Assembly: GCA_031285625.1 (NCBI GenBank)
Contig: JAITVV010000071.1
Location: forward strand, 1 to 64,000
Direction: 5' to 3'
Length of the DNA stretch: 64,000 nt
Source: Prevotella sp.
Lineage (GTDB): Bacteria; Bacteroidota; Bacteroidia; Bacteroidales; Dysgonomonadaceae
Shown piece after piece: positions 8,954 to 55,073 of this stretch. The position numbers were made by a program, and so were the translations under genes. Each line of letters opens with the position of its first letter. The first letter of the stretch is position 1. The notes under the pieces are model-generated. The model saw nothing but the letters and a program-made list of their open reading frames with translations, ran no database searches and had not been told where the DNA came from.

Positions 8954-8963
8954 TTTCTACCAT

Positions 8964-9003
8964 AAATAAAAAGAGCTCTGAATATTCAGAGCTCTTTTTA
9001 TTT
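8964..9003. terminator. Bidirectional terminator (perfect palindrome)
   Basis: AAATAAAAAGAGCTCTGAATATTCAGAGCTCTTTTTATTT between convergent genes. Confidence 0.85.
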
Positions 9004-10064
9004 TAGTGCAACAATATATCTTTCAGCTTTTGCCTCTTTTCTGGCGTAAGCTTTAATTCATTCAACATATAGTCATCTACAGATCCGCTCTTTTCGCGAA
9101 TACACGATATACCATATTTAAGATAAGCAATATCAGACCTGGAAAGCATGGTAAATGCCTCTTGTCTCGATTCGGACAAGCTATCTGCATTCCTCACCAG
9201 CTTCGACCTGTCGATAGCCAAATCGGAAGCCATATAATCGTCCTCAATCACATCCATAGGAACATCCAGTGCACGTAATAAAAAGTATGTAGCCAAACCT
9301 GATTGATCTTTACCTAAATAACAATGAAAAACTAAAGGATAATTCTTTTCATCACATAAGTAATCAAAAAAAGTTGCATATTGGCTTGCAAAGTTGTTTA
9401 CCATATCGCGATATGTATCCTGAGTATATATAATTGCATCCCCACGGAGAAATTGCCCATCCATTACTTTCTGGGAGATAAGGCTGTACCCGTTATAAGC
9501 TATCGGTATGCGAATATTATTCACTCCGGTAAAGCGTTCCGTGCTTCTCTTCTTCACATCCTCTGATCTCAGGTCTATGAAGGTTTTGATATTTAAACTG
9601 TTCAATTCCAAACTATCATGATTCGTCATCCTGAAAAAGCTTCCCGATCGAAAAACCTTGCCCCAGCGTACACGCTTATTGTCGCTGGATATATAGCCTC
9701 CGATATCTCTAAAGTTCTGAACACTATCCATCTCAAAGAAACGGTTGCTCACTACTTCAGAGAGATTTCCAAGCACCTTGATCCGGAAATATTTACGTCT
9801 CTCAACCGTATCAGACTCATTTTTAATTACAGCAATGTAATCATTTGAATTAACTATCAGCTTTGCACTTGAAGGGAATACACTATCATTATCTGATACA
9901 AATATTTCAACCGGAGTATTATCTACCTCAGGGTATAACTCCCACTTAAGGATATAATTACCCTTCCGATCCTGTTCACATAAGACAGTTACAGTTGTAG
10001 TATTTGATGAACAGTTATAAAGGAATATGATGCTAATTAGAAGACCTAGTAATTTTTTTTTCAT
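9003..10064 (-). CDS. Tyrosine-phosphatase family (Y_phosphatase3) lipoprotein, degenerate P-loop
   Basis: Lipobox-like LYNC; NFRDIGGY, IDLR; P-loop HCYLGKDQSG lacks the CX5R arginine. Confidence 0.8.
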   Translation of the reverse strand: MKKKLLGLLISIIFLYNCSSNTTTVTVLCEQDRKGNYILKWELYPEVDNTPVEIFVSDNDSVFPSSAKLIVNSNDYIAVIKNESDTVERRKYFRIKVLGNLSEVVSNRFFEMDSVQNFRDIGGYISSDNKRVRWGKVFRSGSFFRMTNHDSLELNSLNIKTFIDLRSEDVKKRSTERFTGVNNIRIPIAYNGYSLISQKVMDGQFLRGDAIIYTQDTYRDMVNNFASQYATFFDYLCDEKNYPLVFHCYLGKDQSGLATYFLLRALDVPMDVIEDDYMASDLAIDRSKLVRNADSLSESRQEAFTMLSRSDIAYLKYGISCIREKSGSVDDYMLNELKLTPEKRQKLKDILLH

Positions 10065-30840: not shown

Positions 30841-31521
30841 ATGCCACGCATATACAAACTTTCTCGAACCGGATTAAAAATACTATATAAAATACGCCAC
30901 CACAAAGGACATGGTATACACTCTCCTTTTGTATTCAATCTGGTAACCAAGGTTATTGAGGAGAAAACCCCGTTTCATGTATATGAAGATATAAATACAC
31001 TCCTCGATCCTTATAAATCTTTACATTTAAAAAAATATAACCATCTTTCGCTTCGCCTGGTGAATTATTTTAAGGCACGCCGCATCTTAGAGATCGGATC
31101 CGGATATGGAGCTAATACTTTATGTTTGACAGCTCCTTCCAGCAGTATTATCTGTACATGCATAGAAACCGAAAAAAAGAAATATTCGCTGGCACAGGAA
31201 TTATATAAAGATTGGAATAGAGATATAACACTTTATACTGATAAGCAACTCCCGGTATTGAAAGAAAAACAAGATTGCATTTTTATAGATCTGAATAATT
31301 TTAATTACTTATCTTTAGATATTTGCAAATATCTATCTGACATTTCCCATGAAAAATCTTTTATAATTATAAGAGGAATAAGAACAAATAGACGCAATCA
31401 GATGTTATGGAGAGGTATTATTGATATCGAGTCCAGAACAGCTGTCCTGGACATGTTTAATATCGGTATTATATTTTTTGATAAAAAGCTGTACAGGTGG
31501 AATTATCAGATAAGTTTTTAG
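30841..31521 (+). CDS. SAM-dependent methyltransferase-like protein
   Basis: GHGIHSPFVF N-terminus; ILEIGSGYG motif I. Confidence 0.6.
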   Translation: MPRIYKLSRTGLKILYKIRHHKGHGIHSPFVFNLVTKVIEEKTPFHVYEDINTLLDPYKSLHLKKYNHLSLRLVNYFKARRILEIGSGYGANTLCLTAPSSSIICTCIETEKKKYSLAQELYKDWNRDITLYTDKQLPVLKEKQDCIFIDLNNFNYLSLDICKYLSDISHEKSFIIIRGIRTNRRNQMLWRGIIDIESRTAVLDMFNIGIIFFDKKLYRWNYQISF

Positions 31522-31563
31522 AATTACAGGCCTAAATTTTTACAAGCACTTAAATAAGAATAG

Positions 31564-32124
31564 ATGAAAAAAAGCTCTGTATATACCAAAACTGGAGATA
31601 AGGGATTAACATCCCTTGTTGGTGGCAAACGTGTGGCAAAAGCACATGTAAGATTAGATGCATATGGTACAACTGACGAGTTGAATTCCTTTGTCGGATT
31701 TCTTATTGAGGAAATAGAAGATGAGCATGACTTGGAGATTTTATCTTTTATTCAGCATAAATTATTCACTGTGGGGTCATATCTGGCTACCGAAACAGAA
31801 GCAATTCTGCCAAAAGCTGCCAGCATTATTACAGATAAAGATATTTCGATTCTTGAGAATGAAATGGATAAGATGGACAGTGAGTTACCTCAGCTGCGCC
31901 AGTTTGTTCTACCAGGAGGAAGCGAATCGGCATCAAGAGCCCACATTTGCCGTACGGTATGCCGCCGGACTGAACGTTGCATATACAAAGTGAAGGAAGA
32001 ATTTCCTGTTGATGATCTTGTATTAATGTTCGTAAACAGGCTCTCCGACTACTTTTTCTTACTGGCCCGAAAGGAATGTAATAAGAAAGGAAAAGAAATA
32101 TTTTGGAATCAGGCTTTGATATAA
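31564..32124 (+). CDS. PduO-type cob(I)alamin adenosyltransferase
   Basis: YTKTGDKG, YGTTDELNS, RTVCRRTER, NRLSDYFF. Confidence 0.93.
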   Translation: MKKSSVYTKTGDKGLTSLVGGKRVAKAHVRLDAYGTTDELNSFVGFLIEEIEDEHDLEILSFIQHKLFTVGSYLATETEAILPKAASIITDKDISILENEMDKMDSELPQLRQFVLPGGSESASRAHICRTVCRRTERCIYKVKEEFPVDDLVLMFVNRLSDYFFLLARKECNKKGKEIFWNQALI

Positions 32125-32187
32125 GAAATAATGTTATATTTTTGCGAAAAATATAACCAAACTGACAAATAAATAAACGAAAATATT

Positions 32188-32409
32188 ATGTACTGGACTT
32201 TAGAATTAGCATCAAAATTAGAAGATGCACCATGGCCTGCAACAAAAGAAGAGTTGATTGACTATGCCCAACGTTCGGGTGCACCTCTTGAAGTTATAGA
32301 AAACTTACAGGAGATAGAGGATGAAGATGAGATTTTCGATACTATCGAAGACATCTGGCCTGACTATCCTAGTAAAGAAGATTTCTTCTTCAACGAGGAC
32401 GAGTATTAG
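32188..32409 (+). CDS. DUF2795-family small acidic protein (integration target)
   Basis: MYWTLELASKLEDAPWPATKEELIDYA...FFFNEDEY; its 3' end is duplicated at 42413-42436. Confidence 0.85.
   Translation: MYWTLELASKLEDAPWPATKEELIDYAQRSGAPLEVIENLQEIEDEDEIFDTIEDIWPDYPSKEDFFFNEDEY
32386..32407 (+). repeat. attL
   Basis: TTCTTCAACGAGGACGAGTATT; 21/22 identical to 42413-42434. Confidence 0.9.
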
Positions 32410-32453
32410 AGGTAAAAAATTGTAAAATGCTTTAAAATAAAGCGTATATACAG

Positions 32454-32492
32454 GAGATTAGGGTAACAAATAATTACTTTAATCTCTTTTTT
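32454..32492 (+). terminator. Element-borne terminator-like hairpin resembling the host terminator
   Basis: GAGATTAGGGTAA..TTACTTTAATCTC-TTTTTT; compare 42471-42516. Confidence 0.6.
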
Positions 32493-32567
32493 ATGCCTTT
32501 TTTTACTATATTTGTTACCCTAAACGCAACCCTATAAAGGGTAATATTCCTAAAAAAATACATAGTA

Positions 32568-33908
32568 ATGGGTAGAAAGAAAGCTGACAGACCAACAGGA
32601 AAGTTTAAACTTCGTACAGACCAAAGCAAAGACGATGGTAAATATACCTTATATTTAGAATATAGTCTGAATAGAAAATTTGCAAAAACTACCACAGAAT
32701 ATAAATTTAAGCCTTCAGAATGGGATGATAAGAATCAAAAAGTAAAAGGAACTGTTCCAAACTATAATCGTATCAATGCTCAATTATCCAAGCTTAAAAA
32801 TGGCATTGATGCAGCTATTATTGATTATCTTGATAGAACAAAGGGTAACACAAAGAGAAGGTTAACTATTGACATCTTACGAAGTATTGTCCAGCGAAAA
32901 CCAATTACGACATTAGGCAAAGTAGAAAACAACGAATTTTTCGCTATGGCTAATAAAATTCAAGAAGATGAATATTCACATGGAAAAAATTCTTATAGCC
33001 TTTATAAGAATAAGCTAAATCAGATAGATATATTCAAAAAGTTTGTTTCTAAAAAGATAGGTGAGCAATTTATTAATTGTGATGACATTGATATTGACCT
33101 GATAAATGATTATATTAAATGGCGTATAGATAGGGGAAATAAACCTGTTACTATTAATAAAGCTCTCGTCCCAATCAATCAAACTCTAAAAATAGCAAGT
33201 ATTAAAGGCTTTGCTAATGCAGAGATGGCATATTTAATATCAAAATCGTATCTACCTATCAAGACTAAATTGAAAGATGAAGAAGACGAGGAAGATGATG
33301 TAAGATATTTAACAGAGGACCAGATAAAATCGTTATTAGAATTATATCCAAAATTGCATATTAGAACAAAAGATTATATAGATATGTTTCTTTTTGTAAT
33401 TCATACAGGATTACGAGTTTCTGATATAATAACTTTGCGATGGATAAATATTGATATTGAGAAAAAAGAACTGAATAAGATACTATATAAGGGAGACATT
33501 AAACTATCGACACCCCTAACAGCACCAGCTATAAAGATTTTAAATAAATGGAAAGAACGCAATCTAAATGATGTTTTTGTTTTTGACATCCTGCCTTCTG
33601 ATTTTAATTTACAAGACGTTCCATTACTTGACAAAATGCGTATCAATAAAAATCGTTCAATTCTTACATCATTAAATGAAGTCGGTAATAAATTGGAGTT
33701 GGCTTTCAAAATGGGTATGCACGTAGGTAGGCATACATTTGCAGTTTTAGCCTTAAACAGAGAAGTAAACTTGCATATTTTAAGTCAGTTATTGGGACAT
33801 TCAAGTATATTAGTTACAGAAAAAGTGTATGCTAAATTCTTGCCTAAAACAATAAAAGAAGAAGTTGAAACCAAACTCGATTTCAACTTCCTTCCTGATG
33901 GATATTAA
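32568..33908 (+). CDS. Tyrosine integrase with N-terminal arm-binding domain
   Basis: TGLRVSD (R), HVGRHTF (HxxR), LLGHS, TEKVY (Y); N-terminal 'PSEWD' Bacteroidetes arm-binding-type domain. Confidence 0.95.
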   Translation: MGRKKADRPTGKFKLRTDQSKDDGKYTLYLEYSLNRKFAKTTTEYKFKPSEWDDKNQKVKGTVPNYNRINAQLSKLKNGIDAAIIDYLDRTKGNTKRRLTIDILRSIVQRKPITTLGKVENNEFFAMANKIQEDEYSHGKNSYSLYKNKLNQIDIFKKFVSKKIGEQFINCDDIDIDLINDYIKWRIDRGNKPVTINKALVPINQTLKIASIKGFANAEMAYLISKSYLPIKTKLKDEEDEEDDVRYLTEDQIKSLLELYPKLHIRTKDYIDMFLFVIHTGLRVSDIITLRWINIDIEKKELNKILYKGDIKLSTPLTAPAIKILNKWKERNLNDVFVFDILPSDFNLQDVPLLDKMRINKNRSILTSLNEVGNKLELAFKMGMHVGRHTFAVLALNREVNLHILSQLLGHSSILVTEKVYAKFLPKTIKEEVETKLDFNFLPDGY

Positions 33909-33921
33909 CCAACATATTATT

Positions 33922-34221
33922 TCAGTCATAAGCATAAGCTTCTAAACGATTCTTTTGATAAAAGTACATTATATCCTCATAACTGTATAAAAATTTATCA
34001 CCAACCTGAGTATAGGGTAAATAACCCTCGTCACGATACTTCTTTATCCAATTTTGACCGACCCCTAAAAGTTCGGGAAGGTCTTTATTGGTGTAAAAAG
34101 GTTTTACAATATTATTTTTAGTGTGTTCGATTAGAGTAGAACATAGGTTCTTTAAATCTTTTATCTCTTGTTTCAATTCGTTTAGTTCATCGCTATGAAC
34201 TGCAATCAAAGTGCTCATCAT
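33922..34221 (-). CDS. HTH_17/MerR-like excisionase-type protein
   Basis: YTNKDLPELLGVGQNWIKKYRDEGYLPYTQVGDKFLY; convergent with the integrase. Confidence 0.8.
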   Translation of the reverse strand: MMSTLIAVHSDELNELKQEIKDLKNLCSTLIEHTKNNIVKPFYTNKDLPELLGVGQNWIKKYRDEGYLPYTQVGDKFLYSYEDIMYFYQKNRLEAYAYD

Positions 34222-34583
34222 TCTGAATTTTAGCAACTTTATTTTTCATGGAATTTCACAATCCCAAGCTATACTTAAAATCATTGTACTTCTATTATTG
34301 AAGTAACCAAAACAAATATACCTTTTTTATTTTTGAAAAACAAAAGAGATTTTAACAAAATTTGAAATGGCATATTTATGGCATCCTTAAATCTATTGAA
34401 CTACTTTATCCCCATTGACCCATCCCTCATATATAAGGGGATTATGTTGTGAATGAATAAATTCTCAAAAAAATTATGTTTAAGAAGGTCATCTATATTG
34501 AACTTTCAAAAATATTGTAATATTTATTTATATAGACTTTGATAGCTCTATGATATGTATAATAATTTAATAAAAATTAAAGT

Positions 34584-34769
34584 ATGAATAAGAGAATTTA
34601 CAGAGAAGCGGATGAGATGACTAAGTACAAAATGAGTTTAAGCAAATCTAATTCATTAAATCCTAACTATGGGAAACCAAGAGATGAGGAAACTAAACAA
34701 AAGATTTCGGATAGTATGAAAAAGTATTGGTCAGAAGTCCCATTTAAAAATGACTTAAATAAAAAATGA
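34584..34769 (+). CDS. Stand-alone NUMOD3-motif DNA-binding peptide
   Basis: Two NUMOD3-like repeats: DEMTKYKMSLSK and NPNYGKPRDEETKQKISDSMK. Confidence 0.75.
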   Translation: MNKRIYREADEMTKYKMSLSKSNSLNPNYGKPRDEETKQKISDSMKKYWSEVPFKNDLNKK

Positions 34770-34782
34770 AATTTTAGAATTG

Positions 34783-34814
34783 GATGTTGCCGGATACGGC
34801 AACATCTTTATTTT
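34783..34814 (+). terminator. Intrinsic terminator after the NUMOD3 gene
   Basis: GATGTTGCCG-GATA-CGGCAACATC followed by TTTATTTT. Confidence 0.75.
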
Positions 34815-34976
34815 ATATGAATAATATTTTTCATTAACTATTGATTATTTATTTTCAAATTCTATTTTTTATAAAGAAGTTTCATTCTCTCTATCAAGAA
34901 GGGAAATATGTAGCCTGTGGACTACACCACTAATTAGTAAAGTTCACTTGAAGAATAAGAAGTTTAATATTAAAAA

Positions 34977-35996
34977 ATGAATAGTTATGAAAATAAACAT
35001 TTAAAATTTGATACAGTAAAAATTAGAACAAATAAAGAATATTTAAAAGATACATTTATTAAATTCAATCCAAAATATAAATCAAATGGAGAAATAATAA
35101 ATAAATATTATAATTCAAAAGATGATGATAGACTTATTCCCTATAATTTATATATTGGAATTAGTGATAAATCATTAACATTAGAATTTTCATCTAAGAT
35201 ATTATTAGATGATTATCCGAAGCTTATAACAAAAGATACATTCAAACAATGTTTAGAGAATATCAACCAACTTGATATTTGCGCCCTCAATGCTGATTCT
35301 ATTGCAAATGATTGTTATTTTACGAAAGTTCATGTTACCAATGATATAAAATATCCATTCACTGATAATGTATTAGATAGCCTTAATTCAAATGTCAATG
35401 ATTATAGACGTTACCAATGGGAACATTATCGAAAAGACGGCATACGCTTTAAAAAGGATGTAAAATCAATATCCTGCAAAGAGAGTATTGTTATGTACAA
35501 TAAAGAAAAGGAAATTATAAACAATGTAGATTTTCTTTCAATTCTCAGCAAGCCGAATGAAGTAATTGATTATTTTGATGGGGTCACACGTTTTGAAATG
35601 GAGTTGGATAAACCAAAGAAAATATGTGAAGCTCTGAATATTGATACCACCCATATAAGTAAAGTGTTCAATTCAAAGGAAAACCCCTTACTTGTTCAGT
35701 TTAATAAAATTTTTGGAGTAGGAGAGATTAAAAACAGACAATACATTGCTAACTATGAAACCTACGCTATGGATGCTATAATTGAGAAACACAACGGTGA
35801 CATCAAGAAGATAGAACAGGAAATGAAAGACCTGCATGTTTACAGTTCTAATTCTCGTAATGGCTTATCGGAAAGAATGAAGAAGATTAAAGCTCTTATA
35901 GAACAACGAAACGAGAGATTGTATAATTCCAGAGGAATATTGACAGAAATTAGAGAAAAATTAGGCGAAAAAGCACCTATTCCAGCTCAACTATGA
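34977..35996 (+). CDS. Putative rolling-circle replication initiator/relaxase (Rep_trans / gpII-X-like)
   Basis: FDTVKI, TKVHVTND, MYNKEKE (YxK candidate catalytic Tyr) and VTRFEMEL (RxE), in the motif order of Rep_trans/gpII proteins. Confidence 0.6.
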   Translation: MNSYENKHLKFDTVKIRTNKEYLKDTFIKFNPKYKSNGEIINKYYNSKDDDRLIPYNLYIGISDKSLTLEFSSKILLDDYPKLITKDTFKQCLENINQLDICALNADSIANDCYFTKVHVTNDIKYPFTDNVLDSLNSNVNDYRRYQWEHYRKDGIRFKKDVKSISCKESIVMYNKEKEIINNVDFLSILSKPNEVIDYFDGVTRFEMELDKPKKICEALNIDTTHISKVFNSKENPLLVQFNKIFGVGEIKNRQYIANYETYAMDAIIEKHNGDIKKIEQEMKDLHVYSSNSRNGLSERMKKIKALIEQRNERLYNSRGILTEIREKLGEKAPIPAQL

Positions 35997-36089
35997 CACG
36001 CTCAGACTATCATTTTTAGCTTTGAAACCTACTGTTTACGTTGATTTTGGTGTGTGTCGCTTGTAATAGATTATCATGCATGTTTATAA

Positions 36090-36134
36090 AAGAAATAATG
36101 AGGTAGAAAAAAAATCTACCTCATTATTTTCTTT
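36090..36134. terminator. Bidirectional terminator
   Basis: AAATAATGAGGTAGA-A7-TCTACCTCATTATTT between convergent rep and lipoprotein genes. Confidence 0.8.
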
Positions 36135-36145
36135 ATATTTTTATA

Positions 36146-37084
36146 TTATTGTTTATTCCTATCTATTTTATTTAAAATAAACTTTCTGCCTATATTTGTT
36201 TGGTTTGAGCCAGTACCTCTATCATAATAATCATATACCATCTCAATTTTATTTGTTGTCATAGATATTATTTTATAATGGGCTGTAATTTCATCATATG
36301 TAATTTTATTAGATAATTTAAAATAAAATCCATTATTAGTAAAACTTACACTTATACTATGAAATGATATATCAAATTTATCATCGTAATGACTTATCAT
36401 TGAATTATCTATGTATGTTGTGTTAAATCTTAAATAAAATGGATTACTTTCATATTCTTGAAAATTTATAGACCCTTCAAAAAAACCATCTTGTTTACAT
36501 TCCCAAAAAATAGGTCCTTTATCATTAGGGATATGTAATATTTTCGCAATATTTTCCTTATTTATTTGAACAATTTCGGGCACTTCTATTTCGGGAGTTT
36601 CAGGTAGTGTAATTTCACCTTTATACTCGTATTCGTTTTTAAAGTTAAGTGTAAGTGCATTCAGGTTATCATTGTACATATTTTTAATCTTCGCATCATC
36701 AGTAAATGATTCACTTTTGACAATAGTATTGTTATTCAATAGATTAAAAGTAACCTTTGTAGCATATTTGATATAAGTGTAATATACATCGTTAATAGGT
36801 ATTGTTGTACCCTCATCTATATTTGCTTCAATGACGACTTGTACATTATCATTGAACAGCAAGTTAAGATAGGTTGTAACAAAAGTGCTTTTTAGTTGTG
36901 ATTTAGCAATGATAGCCGATTCAACTTTAAGGTCTTTGTTGTTGAAGTTTACGCCATTGTTTGAGATTGCGCCAGTTGTTGTAGGTACAATCGGGTTTGG
37001 GTCAGTATCGTTGTTGTCATCGCTACTACAAGAATAGAATAAGGTCGTTGCCATCAGACACAATGTGAATAATAGTTTTTTCAT
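36146..37084 (-). CDS. Lipoprotein of unknown function (element cargo)
   Basis: MKKLLF..LFYSC lipobox followed by acidic SSDDNND export-type signal; Pro-rich linker. Confidence 0.8.
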   Translation of the reverse strand: MKKLLFTLCLMATTLFYSCSSDDNNDTDPNPIVPTTTGAISNNGVNFNNKDLKVESAIIAKSQLKSTFVTTYLNLLFNDNVQVVIEANIDEGTTIPINDVYYTYIKYATKVTFNLLNNNTIVKSESFTDDAKIKNMYNDNLNALTLNFKNEYEYKGEITLPETPEIEVPEIVQINKENIAKILHIPNDKGPIFWECKQDGFFEGSINFQEYESNPFYLRFNTTYIDNSMISHYDDKFDISFHSISVSFTNNGFYFKLSNKITYDEITAHYKIISMTTNKIEMVYDYYDRGTGSNQTNIGRKFILNKIDRNKQ

Positions 37085-37275
37085 TCTCTGACCTCCTCTC
37101 TAATTGCGTCTTTTACACTTTTTTCAAGTGTTTCTAAATCGTAGTTAGAATCTACAATAGAACCATTCTTTACAACTTGATATAAGTTTTCACACTTATA
37201 GATGTCTGCAAATTTTTCTTTTTTGATAAAAAAAGTTTTTACCAAAATACCAGAGAATACATTTTTGTTCATCAT
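37081..37275 (-). CDS. Small hypothetical protein coupled to the lipoprotein gene
   Basis: 64 aa; ATGA overlap with the lipoprotein start; follows a structured leader. Confidence 0.55.
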   Translation of the reverse strand: MMNKNVFSGILVKTFFIKKEKFADIYKCENLYQVVKNGSIVDSNYDLETLEKSVKDAIREEVRE

Positions 37276-37330
37276 GAAATACGTTCAATTTTGCTCATCA
37301 GCTCCAAATGTGCAGTTTTGTAAATAGAAA

Positions 37331-37479
37331 ACGTGGAGACTGCTAACTTACTCGCCTCGAGGTCTTGGTCACCCTGCAACAGAATAAGTCGCAGCTCCAC
37401 GTCTATAAAATATAAAGACATGGAGCGATTGACTTACTACCCTGTTGCATGAAAGTTACCAAGTTTCGAGTGCGGGTAA
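37331..37479 (-). ncRNA. Candidate structured leader/antisense RNA with two mutually exclusive folds
   Basis: 37331-37353 is complementary to 37382-37402; 37348-37403 is also complementary (with bulges) to 37417-37479. Confidence 0.55.
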
Positions 37480-37646
37480 TATTAAACGCTTTCGTTTTTT
37501 TTAATAAGTCCTTCTATCAAACCATCTCTATGGTATTTGATTGAATTATGATACAAAGATTGATATTTTATTTAAGCCCTGCAAATTATTTCGAATAAGA
37601 TAAATATAATATTCTTTAGTCCAGATAGTTAATTGTTATTATTTAT

Positions 37647-37682
37647 TACACATTTATTAAATTGATGTTCAATAAATGTGTA
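37647..37682. repeat. 12-bp perfect inverted repeat (candidate res subsite/operator)
   Basis: TACACATTTATT-N12-AATAAATGTGTA just upstream of TATATTTG (37701-37708) and the recombinase ATG. Confidence 0.6.
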
Positions 37683-37730
37683 TTTAATGAAAATAATAGT
37701 TATATTTGTTAAGTATTAAACTTTTAACCA

Positions 37731-38411
37731 ATGGAAGCTAAAAAATATACTTGTTATTATAGAGTGTCTACAAAAAAACAAGGCAAATCAGGATTAGGTC
37801 TTGATGCACAAGAAACAATCTGTAAAAACTACGTAGATGGTCAGAAAGGTATAATCATAAATTCTTTCGTTGAAGTTGAAAGTGGTAAAAATGATAACAG
37901 GGAAAAACTGCATACTGCTATTGCTGAATGTAAGCAAACTAACAGTACTCTGTTAATTGCCAAACTTGATAGGTTATCGAGAAGTGTTGAATTTATTTTT
38001 AGTTTGAAAAATTCAGGTATTAATTTTACTTGTGTTGACCTACCTGAACTCAATACCATGACCTTGGGTATCTTTGCAACCTTTGCACAGAGCGAAAGAG
38101 AGCGTATAAGTGAGAGAATCACAAATGCACTCGCTGAAAAGAAAAAAAAGGGTATTAAACTTGGTAAACCTGAAAACTTACTGAACAACTTTGATAAAGC
38201 ATACAGTAATAGTTTAGCTACTCGACAAGGCAATGCAGTAAACAATGAGAACAACAAAAAAGCAGGTCTTTTGATTGTGTCTTTGCGTGATGGTGGTAAA
38301 ACATGGAATGAGATAACCCAAACTTTAAATGATAATGGTTTTAAAACTCGCAGGGGTGGTGTGTTTGGTATAACTCAGGTGGTGAGGCTGTTCAATAGAT
38401 ATTACTCATAA
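37731..38411 (+). CDS. Serine recombinase (resolvase/invertase domain plus short C-terminal DNA-binding domain)
   Basis: YYRVSTKKQ (catalytic Ser), ESGK, KLDRLSR, ERERISER, GIKLG; C-terminal 'LNDNGFKTRRGG'. Confidence 0.92.
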   Translation: MEAKKYTCYYRVSTKKQGKSGLGLDAQETICKNYVDGQKGIIINSFVEVESGKNDNREKLHTAIAECKQTNSTLLIAKLDRLSRSVEFIFSLKNSGINFTCVDLPELNTMTLGIFATFAQSERERISERITNALAEKKKKGIKLGKPENLLNNFDKAYSNSLATRQGNAVNNENNKKAGLLIVSLRDGGKTWNEITQTLNDNGFKTRRGGVFGITQVVRLFNRYYS

Positions 38412-38520
38412 ATTATTGACATATAAAACATTAAGTTTTATCAGATTGTTTATCTATAAGAGAAAAAGAAGCAGATAATCGCATGATTATTGATTAATAA
38501 TTGTATTTTTGCTAAGGAAT

Positions 38521-41500
38521 ATGAAACAAAATGTGTCGCTAAACAAGTTTCTGATTCAGTTAGGATTAGAAAAGGTGGTCTTCTTTAAGGACGAAGAAGG
38601 AGTATACTCCTCTGTTCTACACTTTGACATACAGAATAAACTCAAACTAATCAGTCCTGACGCAATCTATATATTCAATAATCAACCTTTAATTTTATTT
38701 TTCGATTTAACTGATAATACAGACGATAAACGAGAGGATGATATTCACAAAAAAGTATGGTCTTTTGATAATTCTCCGATAGCTTTTATTATAAAAAGTA
38801 ATGAAATAAAAGTATACAATGCACTGAATTATATAAAGAACGAGAATCGCTTAGAAACGATTAACTTAACAAGTGATGAAATCATTAATAAATTCTCTTT
38901 TTGGAATTTACAAAGCAGCAATGTTTGGAATTGGTTTCAAGAAAAATATATTGAAACCATACAAAAAAAGGAAACTAAAAAACGTGTAAACGAAAGGCTT
39001 TTTCAGAATATCAGAGATGTGAGAAATGCTTTGATAGATAAGAACAATGACCCTGAGGGAAGTATTCCAAACTCTCTTATTCTTAGATTGATATTTATAA
39101 GATACTTAATAGATAGAAATATTGAAATTGGTTCAGAGTTTATTGATGGGTGTGATACTTATTCAAGAAGATTAAGTTTCAGTAAACTATTACAAGACCC
39201 TGACAAGCTATCTCGGTTATTTGTAAAATTAAATGATAGATTTAACGGTGTTCTATTCAAAGGTGTTGATATAAAGCTAACTACTACACAAGCTGAAAGT
39301 CTATCTGATATCTTCAATGGTGAAGTACCAAAGAAAAACTCATTATTTTATGGCAGTGATTTCTATTTTGAGATATTTGATTTTTCTATAATTCCTGTTG
39401 AAGTAATTTCAGGAATATATGAATCTTTGATTGACCCTGAAACAAGAAATCTACAATCAGCAGTATATACCCCATCTTTTTTAGTTGAATATATTTTAAA
39501 TGATACTATTGATGTTTTCCTAAATGAGAACAATACATCGGAGTGTAAAATATTCGAAGTTGCTGTTGGCTCAGGAATTTTCCTTGTTCAGTCTTTGAGA
39601 AGAATGATAGAAAAGGAAATTGAATTAAAAGGAAATTTAGACAAAGAAGCTTTTAGTGAACGTATTAGAGACATAGCAAAACAAAATTTATACGGTGTTG
39701 ACATCAATAAGGAAGCATTAAAAGTAACATGTTTTTCAATATATATTGCTCTATTAGATTATCAAGAACCTAAAAATATCTATAAATATAAATTTCCTAA
39801 TCTATTGGGAGAAAACTTATTTGAAGCTAATTTTTTTGACACAAAGAATGAGTTTAATCAAGTAATAAATAATGCAAGACCCCAATATATATTGGGTAAT
39901 CCACCTTGGAAAAGTAATAAAGATGATTACCATATAGAATGGTTAAAGTCTAATAAAAAGACTGTTGGAAGATTTGAAATTGCACAATCCTTTCTTCTGA
40001 GGACAAAAGATTTTATGAATCTCGATACCAAAGTTGCATTAATTATTACGAGTACCATTTTCTATAATGTGTCTAAAACAACAAGAGCATTCAAGAATGA
40101 ATTTTTATCAACATACTGTATTAGTAAATTCTTTGACTTGTCCCCTGTCAGACGATTAATATTTGAAGAAAAAGATAGTCCTGCAAGCGTTGTATATTAT
40201 AAATTATCTGAGAATAATGATTACATTAATAATGTAATAGACCATCAATCTGTTAAAATCAACTATTTTCTTAAACACTTTAAAATGTTGGTCATTGAAA
40301 AGTATGACAAAAAAAAGATTTTCCAACGATATTTTATTGAATATGATTGGATGTTTAAAGTTGCTTTATATGGTAATACCTTAGATTTTGTAACCATTAA
40401 TAAAATAGTCGAAAATAAATCAAAAATTAATGATTACATTGATAATAAAACAATATTTAGTGGTGATGGTATCCTAAAAGGAACACCCAAGCCAACCCCT
40501 TTCTCTTTTCTTATTAATTTACCTATTATAGAAAACGAAGAGGTTAAGTCGTATTATACGAATGTCAATATTGAAAAAACAATGACATTAGATGATACAT
40601 ATTTGGAAAGTGGACGAAAATTAGAATTATTTAAGGGAGAACACATATATTTAAAAAGTCAGACTTTAAATGAATCTGATATTGTAGTTTCCTATAATAA
40701 TCAAACCGCCGTTAATCGACATGATGTGATTACGATAACGTCTGAAAATGAAATTGACAAACTGAAAGAAATTTACGCTTTGCTAATCTCAGATATTCAT
40801 ACCTATTATCAATTCCTAACATCTTCTGCATGGGGAGTTTCAACAAGACCTGCAATAAGATTAAAAGAATATAAAAACTTCCCTTGTGTCACATTAAGCA
40901 CACAACATCAGCAAAAGTTAACATCACTAATAAATGATTTTTTTGAAAATTTCATACTCTACTATAGCGATGAGATAAGGTCTGAAACTCTTCCTGTAAA
41001 TAAGAATATATTAAAGAACATAAATAAACTTATTAATGAATTATACAGGATAAATGAAGCTGAAAAGGACTTGATTAATTATGTTCTAAATGTATCGAGA
41101 TATCAATTTCAAGAAAGTAAGCAAGATTTAATAATAGATTTTACACATACGAATAAGAACGATTATAGAAACAAAGAAACTGTCTTAAAGCAGTATGCAG
41201 AAGTGTTCCTACGAGAGATTGAAGACATATATGATAATGAATATATACAAGCAGAAATATATTCATTACATCATTTTGTTGCGGTAAACTTTGTATTTCA
41301 TTCAGACCCGATTAAGGAGAGAATAATATATCAAAAGAATGCAAATATTATTGAATCATTAGAAAAATTGGGAAATCTAAGTATCTCTCAGATTGCAAGT
41401 GTAACTGACCCTACAAAGAACCTATTTATACAAAAAGATATAAAAGGTTTTGAAGATAATTCATTTTATATAATCAAACCTAATGAATATAAATGTTGGC

Positions 41501-41592
41501 ATCGTGCTATGGCATGGTATGATGTTGCTGAGTTTAAAGCGAAGATTGAAGAAGCTGAGTTAGAATATCTAAACAGTAATGAAGATGAGTGA
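38521..41592 (+). CDS. Large N6-adenine DNA methyltransferase (gamma class, Eco57I/type IIG-like)
   Basis: ISGIYE, AVYTP, FEVAVGSGIFL (motif I), YGVDIN, GNPPW (motif IV); TRD-like C-terminal half. Confidence 0.88.
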   Translation: MKQNVSLNKFLIQLGLEKVVFFKDEEGVYSSVLHFDIQNKLKLISPDAIYIFNNQPLILFFDLTDNTDDKREDDIHKKVWSFDNSPIAFIIKSNEIKVYNALNYIKNENRLETINLTSDEIINKFSFWNLQSSNVWNWFQEKYIETIQKKETKKRVNERLFQNIRDVRNALIDKNNDPEGSIPNSLILRLIFIRYLIDRNIEIGSEFIDGCDTYSRRLSFSKLLQDPDKLSRLFVKLNDRFNGVLFKGVDIKLTTTQAESLSDIFNGEVPKKNSLFYGSDFYFEIFDFSIIPVEVISGIYESLIDPETRNLQSAVYTPSFLVEYILNDTIDVFLNENNTSECKIFEVAVGSGIFLVQSLRRMIEKEIELKGNLDKEAFSERIRDIAKQNLYGVDINKEALKVTCFSIYIALLDYQEPKNIYKYKFPNLLGENLFEANFFDTKNEFNQVINNARPQYILGNPPWKSNKDDYHIEWLKSNKKTVGRFEIAQSFLLRTKDFMNLDTKVALIITSTIFYNVSKTTRAFKNEFLSTYCISKFFDLSPVRRLIFEEKDSPASVVYYKLSENNDYINNVIDHQSVKINYFLKHFKMLVIEKYDKKKIFQRYFIEYDWMFKVALYGNTLDFVTINKIVENKSKINDYIDNKTIFSGDGILKGTPKPTPFSFLINLPIIENEEVKSYYTNVNIEKTMTLDDTYLESGRKLELFKGEHIYLKSQTLNESDIVVSYNNQTAVNRHDVITITSENEIDKLKEIYALLISDIHTYYQFLTSSAWGVSTRPAIRLKEYKNFPCVTLSTQHQQKLTSLINDFFENFILYYSDEIRSETLPVNKNILKNINKLINELYRINEAEKDLINYVLNVSRYQFQESKQDLIIDFTHTNKNDYRNKETVLKQYAEVFLREIEDIYDNEYIQAEIYSLHHFVAVNFVFHSDPIKERIIYQKNANIIESLEKLGNLSISQIASVTDPTKNLFIQKDIKGFEDNSFYIIKPNEYKCWHRAMAWYDVAEFKAKIEEAELEYLNSNEDE

Positions 41593-42310
41593 AGCTTCAA
41601 ACTTTATTTCTAAGCGTAAACAGCCTCTTTCTCTTAGGCAAAAGAATATCCAAAACATACTTTGGTATATGTTAGAATGTTATAGCATAATCCTAAATGA
41701 AGGAAAAACATACTCATTATCAGATATAAAAAAAAGTAACGTAAAACCTGAAAATTATCTCAGAAATAAATTAGTTGATGAATATTTAAGAAAATATACT
41801 CATCTTTTCAAAGAGAAATTTAAGACTGAATATATATTTTTTGATAAAGACACAGAGGAAACATATATTGATGAAAAAGGTAGTGAATCTACTGATAAAA
41901 TCGACATTTATATAAGAAATAAAGCTTTACAAGATTATTGGTCAAATAAGCCAAATGTTTACTATGCAGTGGAATGTAAAAGAATAAAGGAGTTGTCGGA
42001 TACTCAGAAATACATAAATGAAGATACTGTTGGCAAGTTCATAGAAAGAAAGCATACTGAATTTAGACAACCTATTGAAGGACAGCTAGCTTTTATTGAA
42101 AATTCAGATATAAGTCCGCTTAATATAGTAGATGACATAAATAAAAAACTTTGTAAGAACACCAATACAGAATCTCTTTTATCATCAATCGAAGTGCATG
42201 AAATGCAAAAATGTTGTTTTATATCTAAACATAATCGCAGTTTTAATATCAAAAGTAAGTTTAGTATCTATCATTTACTATTAGATTATTCAGATATTGT
42301 GATAAATTGA
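41579..42310 (+). CDS. Putative PD-(D/E)XK endonuclease
   Basis: KIDIYI...AVECKRI gives a D...ExK signature; overlaps the MTase stop. Confidence 0.6.
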   Translation: MKMSEASNFISKRKQPLSLRQKNIQNILWYMLECYSIILNEGKTYSLSDIKKSNVKPENYLRNKLVDEYLRKYTHLFKEKFKTEYIFFDKDTEETYIDEKGSESTDKIDIYIRNKALQDYWSNKPNVYYAVECKRIKELSDTQKYINEDTVGKFIERKHTEFRQPIEGQLAFIENSDISPLNIVDDINKKLCKNTNTESLLSSIEVHEMQKCCFISKHNRSFNIKSKFSIYHLLLDYSDIVIN

Positions 42311-42412
42311 GGGACGTAAAGTAAGCATTTTCAAAATGTTATAAGTTTCACTAAAATATACCCTTAAAATAATTAATATATTTATAATAAGCAAATTAAT
42401 TGTTAAAATAAA

Positions 42413-42434
42413 TTCTTCAACGAGGATGAGTATT
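42413..42434 (+). repeat. attR (displaced original 3' end of the DUF2795 gene)
   Basis: TTCTTCAACGAGGATGAGTATT(GA) encodes FFNEDEY-stop. Confidence 0.9.
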
Positions 42435-42470
42435 GATATTAGAAGTTTGTAACAGGCTAAAAATTAGTAT

Positions 42471-42516
42471 AAAAAAGAGATTAGGGTAATTAATAAATTA
42501 CCCTAATCTCTTTTTT
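42471..42516. terminator. Bidirectional host terminator (DUF2795/uvrA)
   Basis: AAAAAAGAGATTAGGGTAATT-AATA-AATTACCCTAATCTCTTTTTT. Confidence 0.88.
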
Positions 42517-42523
42517 CAATTCC

Positions 42524-45310
42524 TCAAAGCTTCTCCTTCAAAAAACGTCCGGTATATGATTTCTCACATTTAGCTATTTGCTCGGGAGTACCTTCACAAA
42601 CCACATAGCCACCTTCTTTTCCTCCCTCAGGGCCTATATCTATAATATGATCGGCACATTTGATCACATCCATATTATGCTCTATGATTACAATAGTATG
42701 CCCTCTCTTAATCAATGAATCAAAAGCCTTTAATAATGTTTTTATATCATGGAAGTGTAAGCCGGTAGTAGGCTCATCAAAAATAAACAATGTTGGCTCA
42801 GGTTTTTCATCTACAAGATGGAAAGCCAGTTTTACACGCTGATTCTCTCCTCCTGACAAAGATGATGAAGACTGTCCCAGTTTTACATATCCAAGTCCGA
42901 CATCTTGCAATGGCTTCAAACGTTTCACTATCTTCTTTTCAGTACTGCCCTTTCCTTCTTCAAAGAACTCTATAGCCTGGTCGATAGTCATATCCAAAAC
43001 ATCATAGATACTTGCTCCCCGATATTGTACATCCAGTATATCCTGCTTGAAACGCTTGCCTTTGCAGACCTCGCATTCGAGCAATACATCTGCCATAAAC
43101 TGCATCTCAACGAGTATCTTTCCTTCTCCGGCGCACTCTTCACAGCGTCCGCCTTCTACATTGAATGAAAAATAAGCAGGAGTAAAATGCATCTGCTTAG
43201 CTAAAGGTTGCTCGGCAAATAATTTGCGAATCTCATCATAAGCCTTTATATAAGTAACAGGATTTGACCGCGATGACCGTCCTATTGGATTCTGGTCAAC
43301 CATTTCTATTTCTTTGATCAGGTTGAGATCTCCTGCAATACTATTGTATTGCACAATCTGATCACCTTTCCCTTTGTAATGACGTTCCAGGGCAGTATAG
43401 AATACATCAGTAACAAGAGATGACTTACCTGACCCACTTACTCCCGTAACAACAGTCATCACATTAAGCGGGAACTTTACATCAATATTTTTCAGGTTAT
43501 TCTGTCTTGCTCCTTTTACTTCAATGTAATTATTCCATTTACGGCGAACTTTCGGAATATCTATTTTTTCTTCTCCATTCAGATAACGGACAGTATAACT
43601 TTCTGTATGTTTTTGAAGACCCTTGATATCTCCCTGATAAACGACTTCCCCACCCAGACGTCCGGCTTTAGGACCGATATCGATTATATAATCGGCGGCA
43701 AGGATAATCTCTTCATCATGTTCTACCACAATCACTGTGTTCCCTATCGACTTCAGTTCCTGTAGTACATTGATTAACAAATCCGTATCGCGCGAATGAA
43801 GCCCGATACTGGGTTCATCTAGAATATATAAAGATCCTACAAGGCTGCTACCCAGAGACGTCGCCAGATTGATACGCTGGCTTTCACCTCCCGAAAGAGA
43901 GTTTGACAAACGATTAAGTGTAAGATAACCCAACCCTACGTTTACCAGATACTGTATACGTACATTTATATCAGTCAACAGGCGTTTGGCTATTGCAGCA
44001 TCCGTTTCGTTTAATTCAAGTTTCTGAAAAAATTCCTTCAACTCAGATATTGGCATCAGTACAAGATCTGCAATGGTACTACCCCCTACCCTAACATATA
44101 ATGCCTGCGGTTTCAGGCGGGAACCTTTACAAGCAGGACAGGTAGTTTTACCGCGATAGCGGGCCAACATTACCCTGTACTGTATTTTATACTGATTCTC
44201 TTCTACCATCCTGAAGAAATCATCTATACTATGCAAGCCTCTGGCTCCATGCCACAACAGATCTCTTTCTTTATCCGATAACTCAAAATAAGGACGATGA
44301 ACAGGAAAATCATATTTACCAGCTGCATGAATAAAATCACGCTTCCATTCGCTCATCTTTTCACCCTTCCAGCACACGACAGCATCCTCATATACCGAAA
44401 GGCTTTTGTTAGGAACAACCAAGTCTTCATCGATTCCCATTACACGTCCAAATCCTTCACAAACAGGACAAGCGCCTACAGGGCTATTAAAGCTGAACAT
44501 AAGATCGGAAGGTTCTTCGAATTGTATACCATCTGCTTCAAAATGTCGTGAAAAATCAAAAGACTCAATTTTATCACCTATATAAAAACGTACAAAACAA
44601 TCTCCCTCTCCTTCAAAGAATGCGGTTTCTATCGACTCCGAAAAGCGACTTATATTGGCGGCATCCTTATCACATGTAAGACGGTCAATCAAAAGGAGCA
44701 TCTCGTCCGGTTTATGCTTTTCTTTAGAAGCAAGAACATCCTCTATCCTTTCAAATTTTCCGAGAATTTCTACACGGGAGAAACCTTCTTTGGAAAGGAT
44801 TTCCAATTGTTCTTCGAGTGTACGGTCGTCCCGGAGAATTATCTTTGTTAGTATTGCCAAACGTGTTTCCTCAGGATAAGAGAGCATTTTCTCAACAATA
44901 TCACTGACCTGATGCTTTTTAACAATCTGACCTGAAACTGGAGAGATAGTTTTACCCACACGGGCAAATAACAGCCGCAAGTATTCGTATATCTCAGTGG
45001 ATGTACCTACGGTAGATCGCGGATTACGCGCACTTACTCGTTGCTCGATCGCAATTGCAGGAGGTATCCCTTTTATATAATCACTTTCGGGTTTGTTCAT
45101 TCTTCCAAGGAACTGACGCGCATAGGAAGACAAGCTCTCCACATAACGGCGCTGACCTTCGGCATATAATGTGTCAAATGCTAAAGAAGACTTTCCCGAA
45201 CCCGATAAACCTGCTATAACAACAAATTTATTGCGAGGTATTTCTACGTCAATATTTTTCAGGTTATTAACCCGTGCTCCCTTTATAAATATATTTTTTT
45301 CCTCTGACAT
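42524..45310 (-). CDS. uvrA: Excinuclease ABC subunit A
   Basis: Two Walker A motifs ([18 protein letters not shown]), two LSGGE signatures, Zn-finger CxxC pairs. Confidence 0.97.
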
Positions 45311-45570
45311 ATCTTTTTCAAAAAATGGCTACAAAAATACGAAAAAATAAGTGTATTCTTATACTCATTACAAACTTTGACATTCAAGATAAATACTCTT
45401 TACTTTTTAGCTATCAGAATTATAAATCCAGGCAGTCAGGTTCATCAATACAACTGGCTTAGTATATGATTGAAGTTCTCGAAATAAGTTATGAACAACG
45501 ATCCTTTTTGTAATTTGCATACAGCTTCTATTTGCTTTATCTTTGTATCTCACAAAAAAATTAACACGAA

Positions 45571-45900
45571 ATGGAAGAAACTCCAAATTGTCCTGTATGT
45601 AGCATGGAAAATACATACTTTGATGGTACTGCATTTATTTGTCCTGACTGTTTTCATGAATGGACAGACCATGCAACTGATGAAACTGAGGATACAACAC
45701 CTAAAGATAGTAATGGGGCAGAGCTTTTTGACGGTGATGCTGTTACAGTAATTAAAGACCTGAAAGTAAAAGGGTCATCTATGGTTATCAAGCGTGGTAC
45801 AAAAGTAAGAAGTATTCGTTTGACTGAGGAACCTACAGAAGTAGACTGCAAAATAGACGGTTCAAGTATTGTACTGAAAACCTGTTTTTTAAAGAAATAA
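45571..45900 (+). CDS. PhnA/YjdM zinc-ribbon protein
   Basis: CPVC...CPDCFHEW; KDSNG..L.DGD.VTVIKDLKVKG. Confidence 0.9.
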   Translation: MEETPNCPVCSMENTYFDGTAFICPDCFHEWTDHATDETEDTTPKDSNGAELFDGDAVTVIKDLKVKGSSMVIKRGTKVRSIRLTEEPTEVDCKIDGSSIVLKTCFLKK

Positions 45901-45909
45901 TTATTTTAT

Positions 45910-46401
45910 ATGTTTATAGATAAATGGTGGGGAAATTATATTGGGGGTTCTGACGATTCTTTTTTATTGTTAGACTATTTCGGCACCAGGAATTCTACAG
46001 TTTTCAATTTAAATGATATTTTACAAGAAACAGGGCTTAGTGATTTATTGATAAGTGGAGGGTTGGAAAACGGCGATCTTTCTTTTCAGGTGAAGGAAGG
46101 ATATGTTCCACACTTCGATATGACGATAGATGTATTGATCGATTTATCCGCAATAGTTATAGAATGTTTACATAATCAGCGTGTTGCAATTAAGGATTTA
46201 GATAATTCATCTAACTATTCAAATACAATATCAATTTCTGCAAAACCAGAGGATCTGATGTTACTAACTAACGGTTTGGATAACTTTATCAAGAATCCTA
46301 AATCATATGAGCTATCTGATATGATGGATGAAGAAAGCCTTTCAGAACTGCTTGCAGATTGTAATGAAGTCTGCGAATCTCTCAGAAAATATATTTTATA
46401 A
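45910..46401 (+). CDS. Imm68-like putative immunity protein
   Basis: N-terminus MFIDKWWGNYIGGSDDS recalls the Imm68 family; acidic. Confidence 0.55.
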   Translation: MFIDKWWGNYIGGSDDSFLLLDYFGTRNSTVFNLNDILQETGLSDLLISGGLENGDLSFQVKEGYVPHFDMTIDVLIDLSAIVIECLHNQRVAIKDLDNSSNYSNTISISAKPEDLMLLTNGLDNFIKNPKSYELSDMMDEESLSELLADCNEVCESLRKYIL

Positions 46402-55000: not shown

Positions 55001-55073
55001 TGATCCCGCTGGGGCTCGAACCCAGGACCCCATCATTAAAAGTGATGTGCTCTACCTGCTGAGCTACGGAATC
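55001..55073 (-). tRNA. tRNA-Lys(UUU)
   Basis: Reverse complement GATTCCGTAGCTCAGCAGGTAGAGCACATCA-CTTTTAA-TGATGGGGTCCTGGGTTCGAGCCCCAGCGGGATCA; cloverleaf, anticodon TTT, no encoded CCA. Confidence 0.96.

Follow-up and report, generated by a model that had tools for sequence, protein, structure and literature searches.

The locus and its structured element

The DNA analysed here, called the window throughout, is a stretch of 64,000 nucleotides (nt) from a Prevotella sp. genome placed in the family Dysgonomonadaceae (assembly GCA_031285625.1, contig JAITVV010000071.1, positions 1 to 64,000 of the forward strand). At 37325–37493 it carries, on the minus strand, an element predicted to fold as a long RNA rod, which lies between a promoter box and a small operon made up of an open reading frame (ORF) of 64 amino acids (aa) and a lipoprotein gene, inside an integrative island of low G+C content. 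A first-pass annotation of the same DNA had pointed to a G+C-richer patch at 37331–37479 as a two-state RNA leader resembling the antisense switches of phages P4 and P1. The hairpin indeed lies there, the G+C content of the core (44%) stands above that of the island (27–31%), and both genes are found downstream of it on the minus strand, overlapping by 4 nt.

Minimum-free-energy folding of the 181 nt at 37320–37500, with 200 shuffles per strand, indicates that a long imperfect hairpin is possible on both strands: –68.0 kcal/mol on the plus strand (shuffle mean –37.7, standard deviation 3.9, z –7.79) and –71.2 kcal/mol on the minus strand (z –7.87), with 0 of 200 shuffles as good in either case. 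The parts of the element, in the 5' to 3' order of the minus strand, are the following:

37554–37585, minus strand: predicted Bacteroidetes promoter, with a –33 TTTG at 37585–37582, a 20-nt spacer and the –7 box AATCTTTG at 37561–37554
37516–37541, minus strand: P0, a small hairpin of the 5' leader followed by an A-rich linker, as seen in prefix folds
37325–37493, minus strand: core structured RNA, 169 nt, with a rod of about 67 base pairs, scoring 150.2 bits against covariance model R1
37474–37493, minus strand: segment Y (GAAAGCGUUUAAUAUUACCC), partner of X2 in the rod and of X1 in the two-hairpin fold
37416–37438, minus strand: segment X1, partner of X' in the rod (apical helices) and of Y in the alternative fold
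37383–37404, minus strand: segment X' (AGACGUGGAGCUGCGACUUAUU), partner of X1 in the rod or of X2 in the alternative fold; it corresponds to 37382–37402 of the first-pass annotation
37331–37351, minus strand: segment X2, a direct-repeat look-alike of X1, corresponding to 37331–37353 of that annotation
37343–37334, minus strand: conserved 10-nt stretch of X2, GCAGUCUCCA, an unpaired bulge in the rod
37320–37331, minus strand: U-rich tract UUUUCUAUUUAC, immediately 3' of X2 and of the basal rod helix P1
37292–37315, minus strand: Pd, a downstream hairpin whose loop holds element D
37307–37299, minus strand: element D (UUGGAGCUG), in the Pd loop and complementary to the X2 bulge
37081–37275, minus strand: first downstream ORF, 64 aa, with its ATG 49 nt past the core
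36146–37084, minus strand: second ORF, 312 aa, a predicted lipoprotein whose signal peptide ends in ...LFYSC

Strand and covariation of the rod

Copies of the element in other genomes were collected with the covariance model R1 (171 positions, 67 pairs), which was built on nine copies, a tenth sequence (L016) being left out as a 34-nt partial match. The trimmed cores of all nine first copies adopt one common rod of –57 to –72 kcal/mol, and in eight of the nine the minus-strand RNA folds better than the plus-strand one. Across 80 distinct copies the rod pairs hold 707 G-U cells against 150 A-C cells, and in 78 of these copies the sense strand has a better fold than the complementary one. The excess of G-U, together with the better folding of the sense strand, points to a single-stranded molecule read from the minus strand of the window.

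The alignments used for covariation (A4, with 33 sequences of the family; A5, with 35 sequences from three deeply sampled genomes and from 11 of the order; and A6) were fitted to the rod model. In A4, 88.6% of the cells are paired in the rod, compared with 39–45% when the partners are slid, 58 of the 67 pairs have changed on both sides, and the covariation score is 0.498, compared with 0.07–0.105 for slid partners and with 0 of 500 shuffles as high. The values are similar in A5 (89.5% of cells paired, 62 of 67 pairs changed on both sides, score 0.562 against about 0.085 slid), so that the covariation among homologues which the first-pass annotation had suggested as a check is found in 58–62 of the 67 pairs. 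Four types of base pair occur at 92–97% pairing in rod helix 5 in A4 and in helices 4 and 5 in A5, and such helices leave little doubt, on comparative grounds, that the rod is real even though the alignments were fitted to it.

Two mutually exclusive folds

The rod joins Y to X2 and X1 to X', whereas the alternative fold joins Y to X1 and X' to X2 in two separate hairpins. Since the four segments are mutually compatible the core can form either arrangement, and since X' is common to both, the two exclude each other. This exclusion had been recognized in the first reading of the sequence, in which one fold (37348–37403 with 37417–37479) is the minimum-free-energy rod and the other (37331–37353 with 37382–37402) is the X2:X' hairpin of the two-hairpin state; both are kept in relatives, at 88.6 and 85.1% of cells paired. 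In the window copy, the 3' half of the RNA taken alone folds at –38.0 kcal/mol, compared with –71.0 kcal/mol for the whole rod of the minus strand.

For the two-hairpin fold in A4, the 85.1% of paired cells compare with 41–50% for slid partners, 43 of 55 pairs have changed on both sides, and the covariation score is 0.327, against 0.235 for shuffled and about 0.10 for slid alignments. The RNAalifold consensus computed on a plain MAFFT alignment of the nine copies is the two-hairpin fold. Seven X':X2 pairs fall in columns that are unpaired in the rod, and about 94% of their cells are paired (tallied from the column table); X' is paired with X1 (rod) in 88.6% of cells and with X2 (alternative fold) in 86.1%. 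Without the likeness of X1 and X2, which nearly every copy preserves at about 25 positions, the two-hairpin fold could not form; and as X1 and X2 themselves co-vary, its covariation is confounded. Taken together, the comparative data support the presence, in this leader, of two mutually exclusive folds that have both been conserved in evolution.

The conserved module from promoter to start codon

The –7 box of the window copy (AATCTTTG) has one mismatch, as read from the sequence, with TAnnTTTG, which we take to be the Bacteroidetes –7 consensus. Of 66 distinct copies, 49 have a perfect TAnnTTTG on the same strand, 40–90 nt upstream of the core, and the distance from the –7 box to the core is about 50–60 nt. 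Hairpins like P0, with differing sequences, are present in other copies when these are inspected by eye, with no formal count. Inside P0 of the window copy there is a AUGGUUUGA (Met-Val-stop), and AUGACAUAA/AUGACUUAA, a two-codon Met-Thr-stop mini-ORF, is conserved about 25–30 nt 5' of the core in the leader of several order-level copies (L057, L061, L062, L065); these mini-ORFs may be due to chance or may represent a start-stop element. In a class-level subgroup that looks Flavobacteriales-like (L095, L096, L101), only about 25 nt separate the –7 box from the core, P0 is missing, and the next ORF, about 230–240 nt downstream, has an N-terminus with the look of a SusC-type TonB-dependent receptor, as judged by eye.

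On the 3' side of the core, at least 7 U are present in an 11-nt window across the core end in 51 of 65 copies. Past this U-rich stretch comes a purine block, D, which 58 of the 65 copies possess; in 46 of these it begins between +18 and +25. Duplexes between D and the bulge have a mean energy of –11.4 kcal/mol when both are taken from the same locus, compared with –9.0 kcal/mol across loci, with 0 of 5000 permutations as low. A stem of –2 kcal/mol or lower around D is formed in 36 of 57 native sequences, compared with 24% of chimeras, again with 0 of 5000 permutations as low; this chimera test was used in place of an automatic criterion for D in a loop, which recognized only 17 of 65 copies. 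The co-variation that ties D and its hairpin to the bulge of the same locus argues for selection on the read-through RNA.

Of 68 matches, 61 are followed by an ORF of 40 aa or more in the same orientation, which in 51 cases begins between +41 and +77 (both counts enter two loci twice). The region around the start codon is A/U-rich (74% A/U). No TAnnTTTG was seen by eye between the core and the start of the ORF; with 51 of the 61 starts confined to a 37-nt window, this gap free of a –7 box argues that the downstream gene depends on the promoter of the element. The extent of the unit is delimited by a related island in another Dysgonomonas (L019), in which 37264–37633 is kept at 84% identity while the flanking genes differ on both sides; the conserved unit thus extends from the promoter to the ATG, with the leader in between.

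Masking of the start region by the leader was considered and rejected: native duplexes of Y, the 5' leader or the whole core with positions –22 to +6 do not differ from cross-locus ones (1128, 1482 and 367 of 5000 permutations as low, respectively), and the complementarity between Y and the start region seen in the window is common only to its 91%-identical relative.

A model for the leader

The arrangement of these parts suggests how the leader could work. Transcription would begin on the minus strand of the window, at the element's own promoter. In the two-hairpin state, X' and X2 would form a continuous G+C-rich stem (GCGUGGG/CCCACGC in most copies) abutting the U tract in the manner of an intrinsic terminator. 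In the rod state, CCCA, half of that stem, would be expelled as part of the 10-nt bulge, and only a short A-U-rich helix, itself using U-rich bases, would abut the tract. With half of the stem bulged out and only a short helix at the U tract, the polymerase should read through more often in the rod state, so that the rod would function as an antiterminator and the two-hairpin fold as a conditional intrinsic terminator. In read-through transcripts the D loop would pair with the bulge, locking the rod, and about 25 nt further on the downstream gene would have its start region, A/U-rich and unstructured. The balance between the two states would be shifted by a signal, which could be a protein, an RNA acting in trans or a physical cue. 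The leader is probably a conditional terminator switch. The full proposal, namely an undescribed family of cis-acting 5'-leader RNAs of the Bacteroidia, read in the window from the minus strand and from its own promoter and switching between rod and terminator, is held tentatively, at slightly below an even chance.

Several observations weigh against this model. Being fitted to the rod model, alignments A4 to A6 favor the rod, and the covariation of the two-hairpin fold is weaker than that of the rod. Duplexes of X' with the bulge are better for native than for cross-locus partners by only about 1 kcal/mol, with relatedness uncontrolled, and the permutation tests ignore the relatedness of the copies. 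The rod is more stable than the two hairpins by 5–25 kcal/mol in 32 of 33 copies, and prefix folds proceed directly to the rod; the terminator state would thus need a factor that the model does not name. The basal helix P1 of the rod also abuts the U tract, just as the X':X2 stem does in the two-hairpin state, and so both states might terminate, or neither. A simple terminator scan of 36900–37800 found no terminator, its loop limit of 3–8 nt excluding the X':X2 hairpin. The transcript, its ends and its termination are all predicted from the DNA. Lastly, seven of the 68 matches are without an ORF, four of them with flanks shorter than 170 nt and three with at least 1.4 kb downstream, and one pair of copies stands in tandem; the latter three copies and the tandem pair fit a free-standing RNA better.

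In that alternative the element would be a small RNA (sRNA) gene, whose product, stable and about 230 nt long, acts in trans, for instance when its bulge binds the D loops of other copies or other targets, with read-through being secondary. Besides the three copies just mentioned and the tandem pair, whose members are about 95 nt apart, an sRNA gene would account for the promoter box of its own and for the U-rich tract after a strong hairpin, and the conservation of bulge and D across copies would make trans pairing between copies possible. Multi-copy sRNA families do occur in Bacteroides, as the FopS study reports (PMC11697453). The position of the downstream genes is hard to reconcile with it, as 51 of the 61 ORFs start within 37 nt and depend on the element's promoter, and so is the co-variation of D and its hairpin with the bulge of the same locus rather than with those of other loci. 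An sRNA gene is therefore regarded as unlikely.

Family and distribution

A BLAST search detected copies in eight of 170 genomes of the family, the genome of the window included, and a contig scan with an exact pattern was too strict, returning only five Dysgonomonas loci, so that the covariance model was needed. Full-length matches to R1 were obtained in 65 of 151 genomes of the family (the own genome included), spread over 14 of 21 genera and reaching 16 per genome, in 47 of 150 other genomes of the order, sampled over about 148 genera, and in 11 of 150 further genomes of the phylum, ten of them in the same class. The copy of a relative matched three Bacteroidota plasmid records and no phage: these are plasmids of Chryseobacterium shandongense (two records) and of Rhizosphaericola mali, both confirmed by R1. 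On comparative sequence evidence, the element represents a new family within a known general kind of RNA, with unusually strong comparative support and a wide distribution. In three genomes, the copies within one genome are only 25–77% identical, which indicates that the family is old and maintained and has not spread recently.

The genome of the window has a second copy, at 72% identity, and a third one recognized by R1. The second (in L009, G000:C6:86000-96004, region 6500–9903) lies in another element, with a large serine recombinase of 521 aa and a resolvase-type recombinase of 206 aa, adjoins an apparent tRNA gene (judged from spurious ORFs), and its contig ends 100 nt past the RNA. The third (G000:C40:104-262) is followed by a sequence identical to that downstream of the second, so that one locus may be represented by these contigs as alternative paths. 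In some Bacteroidales drafts with 12–15 copies (G184, G210, G243), many matches stand 100–900 nt from the end of a contig, which suggests assemblies broken by near-identical copies or by a larger repeat holding them; there could have been a recent spread in these lineages. Copies in tandem are seen in L079 (8–205 and 301–501), L086 (3001–3164 and 4373–4537), L082 and L083; some pairs have a single small gene between them, as in a cassette, and one pair, about 95 nt apart, has no ORF.

Such multiplicity recalls elements that work at the DNA level, either a selfish palindrome of the ERIC or Correia type or another miniature transposable element with inverted repeats (MITE), or a single-stranded recombination site similar to attC, the RNA fold then being incidental. 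The element is, after all, an imperfect palindrome, intergenic and present in up to 16 copies per genome, with many matches within a few hundred bases of draft contig ends and with pairs of copies 1–3.5 kb apart that flank small ORFs, and two of the three own-genome copies adjoin genes for small serine recombinases. A repeat of this kind would not be expected to keep a fixed orientation with respect to a promoter box and an ORF, to show the excess of G-U over A-C and the better folding of the sense strand described above, or to diverge to 25–77% identity within a genome with compensatory changes; moreover, the conserved unit extends beyond the palindrome to take in the promoter, P0 and Pd, and no recombinase is found next to the other seven of the first nine loci. 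A DNA-level origin is accordingly judged very unlikely.

The comparison with the known repeats leads in the same direction. ERIC and Correia (NEMIS) elements are multi-copy intergenic palindromes that are transcribed and fold as hairpins in mRNA. The present element resembles them in being an imperfect palindrome of 130–170 nt, multi-copy, intergenic and able to form an mRNA hairpin, and differs by its strict orientation, its own promoter, the fixed spacing to the ATG and the compensatory changes that accompany its deep divergence. Neither terminal repeats nor target duplications were noticed at the copies, no systematic search for them being made. Integron attC sites fold on the strand opposite the cassette ORFs and have an integron integrase nearby; here the favored strand is the sense strand of the ORF, the neighbors are a phage-type tyrosine integrase and a small serine recombinase, and most copies have no recombinase nearby.

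Genes downstream of the copies

The genes that follow the copies are mutually unrelated, and most of them encode lipoproteins, secreted proteins or outer-membrane proteins. Among their products are lipoproteins, including a Bor-like one, β-barrel outer-membrane proteins, tiny membrane peptides of two helices and zinc-ribbon proteins; the larger surface proteins have Big_2, BACON, GLUG with a type IX secretion system (T9SS) tail, LRR_5 or trypsin-like domains, and in some copies of other orders SusC-like receptors are encoded about 230 nt downstream. A Pfam family at E ≤1e-4 was assigned to only 11 of the 47 downstream ORFs scanned. Signal peptides were predicted in 40 of the 61 downstream ORFs, compared with 45% of the long ORFs in this genome (binomial p about 0.001, with a crude, self-made heuristic, two loci counted twice and kin that are not independent), a weak indication of enrichment downstream of the copies. 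The 64-aa and 312-aa proteins of the window have no match in Pfam, NCBIfam, PADLOC or PHROGs. That they form a toxic or exclusion-type operon, as first proposed, is not borne out by these data, since copies precede dozens of unrelated genes and the two proteins match no family.

A variety of genes behind a constant leader could also be explained by a constitutive expression cassette, in which the rod shields the mRNA from decay that depends on the 5' end and the ribosome finds a standby or S1 site in the A/U-rich nucleotides that separate rod and Pd; the leader would not switch, and the module would be retained because it makes acquired genes for surface proteins expressible. This would agree with the many unrelated genes, mostly without a family, with copies on plasmids and in an integrative island, with a module kept while its cargo is swapped, and with a fixed spacing to an ATG whose surroundings have 74% A/U and no conserved pairing to the core. 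Sequence conservation is high inside the helices, and neither this nor the conserved pairing between bulge and loop would be needed in a cassette; a stabilizer would likewise have no use for the approximately 25 positions at which X1 and X2 are alike and which keep the second fold 85% paired. Constitutive expression is for these reasons thought improbable.

If the leader is instead a switch as modeled above, a broader role can be imagined, in which a class of bistable leaders provides a shared handle on the accessory surface proteome: as many as 16 leaders in a genome would be flipped by a factor still to be named, or by the RNAs themselves, one copy pairing with another by way of X', the bulge and the D loop, and the module would be a portable cassette for acquired genes of lipoproteins and outer-membrane proteins. 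This extension is speculative and rather doubtful. Bacteroidia dominate many gut and environmental communities, and what these bacteria capture as nutrients, how susceptible they are to phages and how they interact with the host is decided by their surface lipoproteins and outer-membrane proteins. To our knowledge, little post-transcriptional control has been described in Bacteroidetes, in which initiation is not led by Shine-Dalgarno sequences. A multi-copy leader family with textbook-grade covariation, absent from Rfam and present in about a third of the sampled Bacteroidales families as well as in other orders, predicts a regulon, may point to an RNA-binding regulator not yet described, and could serve as an expression or regulatory part in Bacteroides engineering.

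Relation to known RNA systems

A scan of the whole window against Rfam 15 at gathering thresholds returned only the tRNA at 55001–55073, and a permissive scan of 37100–37750 gave mir-1303 as its best match, with 27.4 bits against a threshold of 107. In 12 diverse members nothing was found at the motif except SQ1002, at 25 bits against 128. A match to a known Rfam family, which the first-pass annotation had named as a reason to abandon its proposal, is thus found neither for the window copy nor for the 12 relatives, and its description of an undescribed RNA switch of Bacteroidetes agrees with the lack of an Rfam family and with the distribution of the element. A full-text search of the literature found no description of this motif.

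Attenuators and riboswitch platforms are the closest general relatives. As in these, a 5' leader lies behind a promoter, four segments pair either as 1:2 and 3:4 or as 1:4 and 2:3, and one of the arrangements sets a G+C-rich stem directly before a U tract; the two exclusive conserved pairings with a common segment by which an intrinsic-terminator attenuator is recognized are both present in this RNA. It differs from them in several respects: no leader peptide, tRNA-binding site or ligand pocket is evident, the conserved bases are in helices and not in junctions, the antiterminator would be a rod of about 60 base pairs, a loop pairs with a bulge, and up to 16 copies per genome precede unrelated genes.

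In the P4 CI and the P1/P7 C4 RNAs, which belong to the immunity region of a phage or satellite, the leader holds two repeats flanking a central segment complementary to both, and replication or antirepressor genes are controlled; these RNAs are processed from the leader by RNase P to a stable form of about 70–77 nt. The likeness proposed by the first-pass annotation stands as far as architecture goes, in that the direct repeats X1 and X2 flank a complementary X', the element has the position of a leader, and the window copy sits on an integrative element. If it extended to function, an X' RNA cut from the leader would pair with X1 and X2 on nascent transcripts of its own or of sister copies and silence genes of mobile elements, and the setting of the window copy, in a 10-kb integrative island with an integrase and excisionase-like genes, would be suitable, as would the 3' half, which folds stably alone at –25 to –47 kcal/mol. 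This part is not supported. No phage or satellite immunity region was recognized around the element. C4 (RF01695) gave no match at E up to 10 in 37100–37750, nor at E up to 1 in the 12 relatives, no other Rfam family is matched, and neither a phage nor a viral contig is, the two-block pattern matching 0 viral contigs. The family is chromosomal and class-wide, most copies being in ordinary chromosomal settings 5' of genes for surface proteins, and the genes downstream include no replication, antirepressor or known toxin gene. A phage-type immunity RNA is extremely improbable, and the first interpretation is partly supported, being right in kind (an undescribed two-state leader) and wrong in its model (immunity RNA and toxic operon).

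Among the RNAs of Bacteroidales, the FopS RNAs are described as 65–70 nt long, with a single-stranded 5' seed and a terminator, acting in trans on susC mRNAs and deposited in Rfam (PMC11697453). What they and GibS have in common with this element is to be multi-copy RNAs with canonical promoters tied to the expression of outer-membrane proteins (PMC11697453); by the same account, they differ from its 169-nt core of 67 pairs, which would act in cis and has no Rfam match. The study also mentions a six-member sRNA family of B. thetaiotaomicron located beside transposases and invertases (PMC11697453). In another survey, the candidate RNAs HMP2_4205 and HMP_4078/HMP2_4078 are presented as palindromic, 109–132 bp long and mostly from Bacteroidetes, one being a predicted terminator and one lying near phage integrase domains (PMC8040213). 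Their likeness to the present motif is one of description, and one of them may be the same motif.

Genomic island and mobile context

The window copy is carried by a low-GC integrative island of 10 kb (32386–42516), bounded by imperfect direct repeats of about 105–130 nt (32386–32492 and 42413–42516) and situated between a cobalamin adenosyltransferase gene and uvrA. No tRNA, as a remnant or attachment site, was found in 31000–46000. In addition to the 64-aa ORF/lipoprotein operon, its cargo comprises a tyrosine integrase, an excisionase-like helix-turn-helix (HTH) protein, a NUMOD3 peptide, two ORFans of 339 and 243 aa, a small serine recombinase and a type IIG restriction-modification enzyme (PADLOC REase_MTase_IIG, E 4e-127). 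The related island in the other Dysgonomonas (L019) occupies the same site with other cargo.

The serine recombinase was considered as a conserved partner of the RNA and rejected: the recombinases adjoining two of the three own-genome copies are only 24% identical, and the other seven of the first nine loci have unrelated neighbors. The adjacent invertase-like gene also prompted the idea of an invertible promoter, and only weak inverted repeats (71–73%) flank the promoter.

A blastn search with 37280–37730 matched only an AT-rich stretch outside the hairpin (two Bacillus plasmids and 18 Vibrio phages). An AT-rich inverted repeat of 30 nt, 80% complementary (37632–37697), immediately precedes the serine recombinase gene, and the 68 nt adjoining it (37657–37724) match the 18 Vibrio phage records in intergenic positions at 77–80% identity (E down to 2e-6), which is probably a low-complexity similarity of AT-rich DNA. 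Elsewhere, in the region 3156–7236 of L023 (G010:C13), a copy of the element stands beside an OLD-family ATPase-TOPRIM nuclease and a UvrD-like helicase, a defense pair resembling Gabija.

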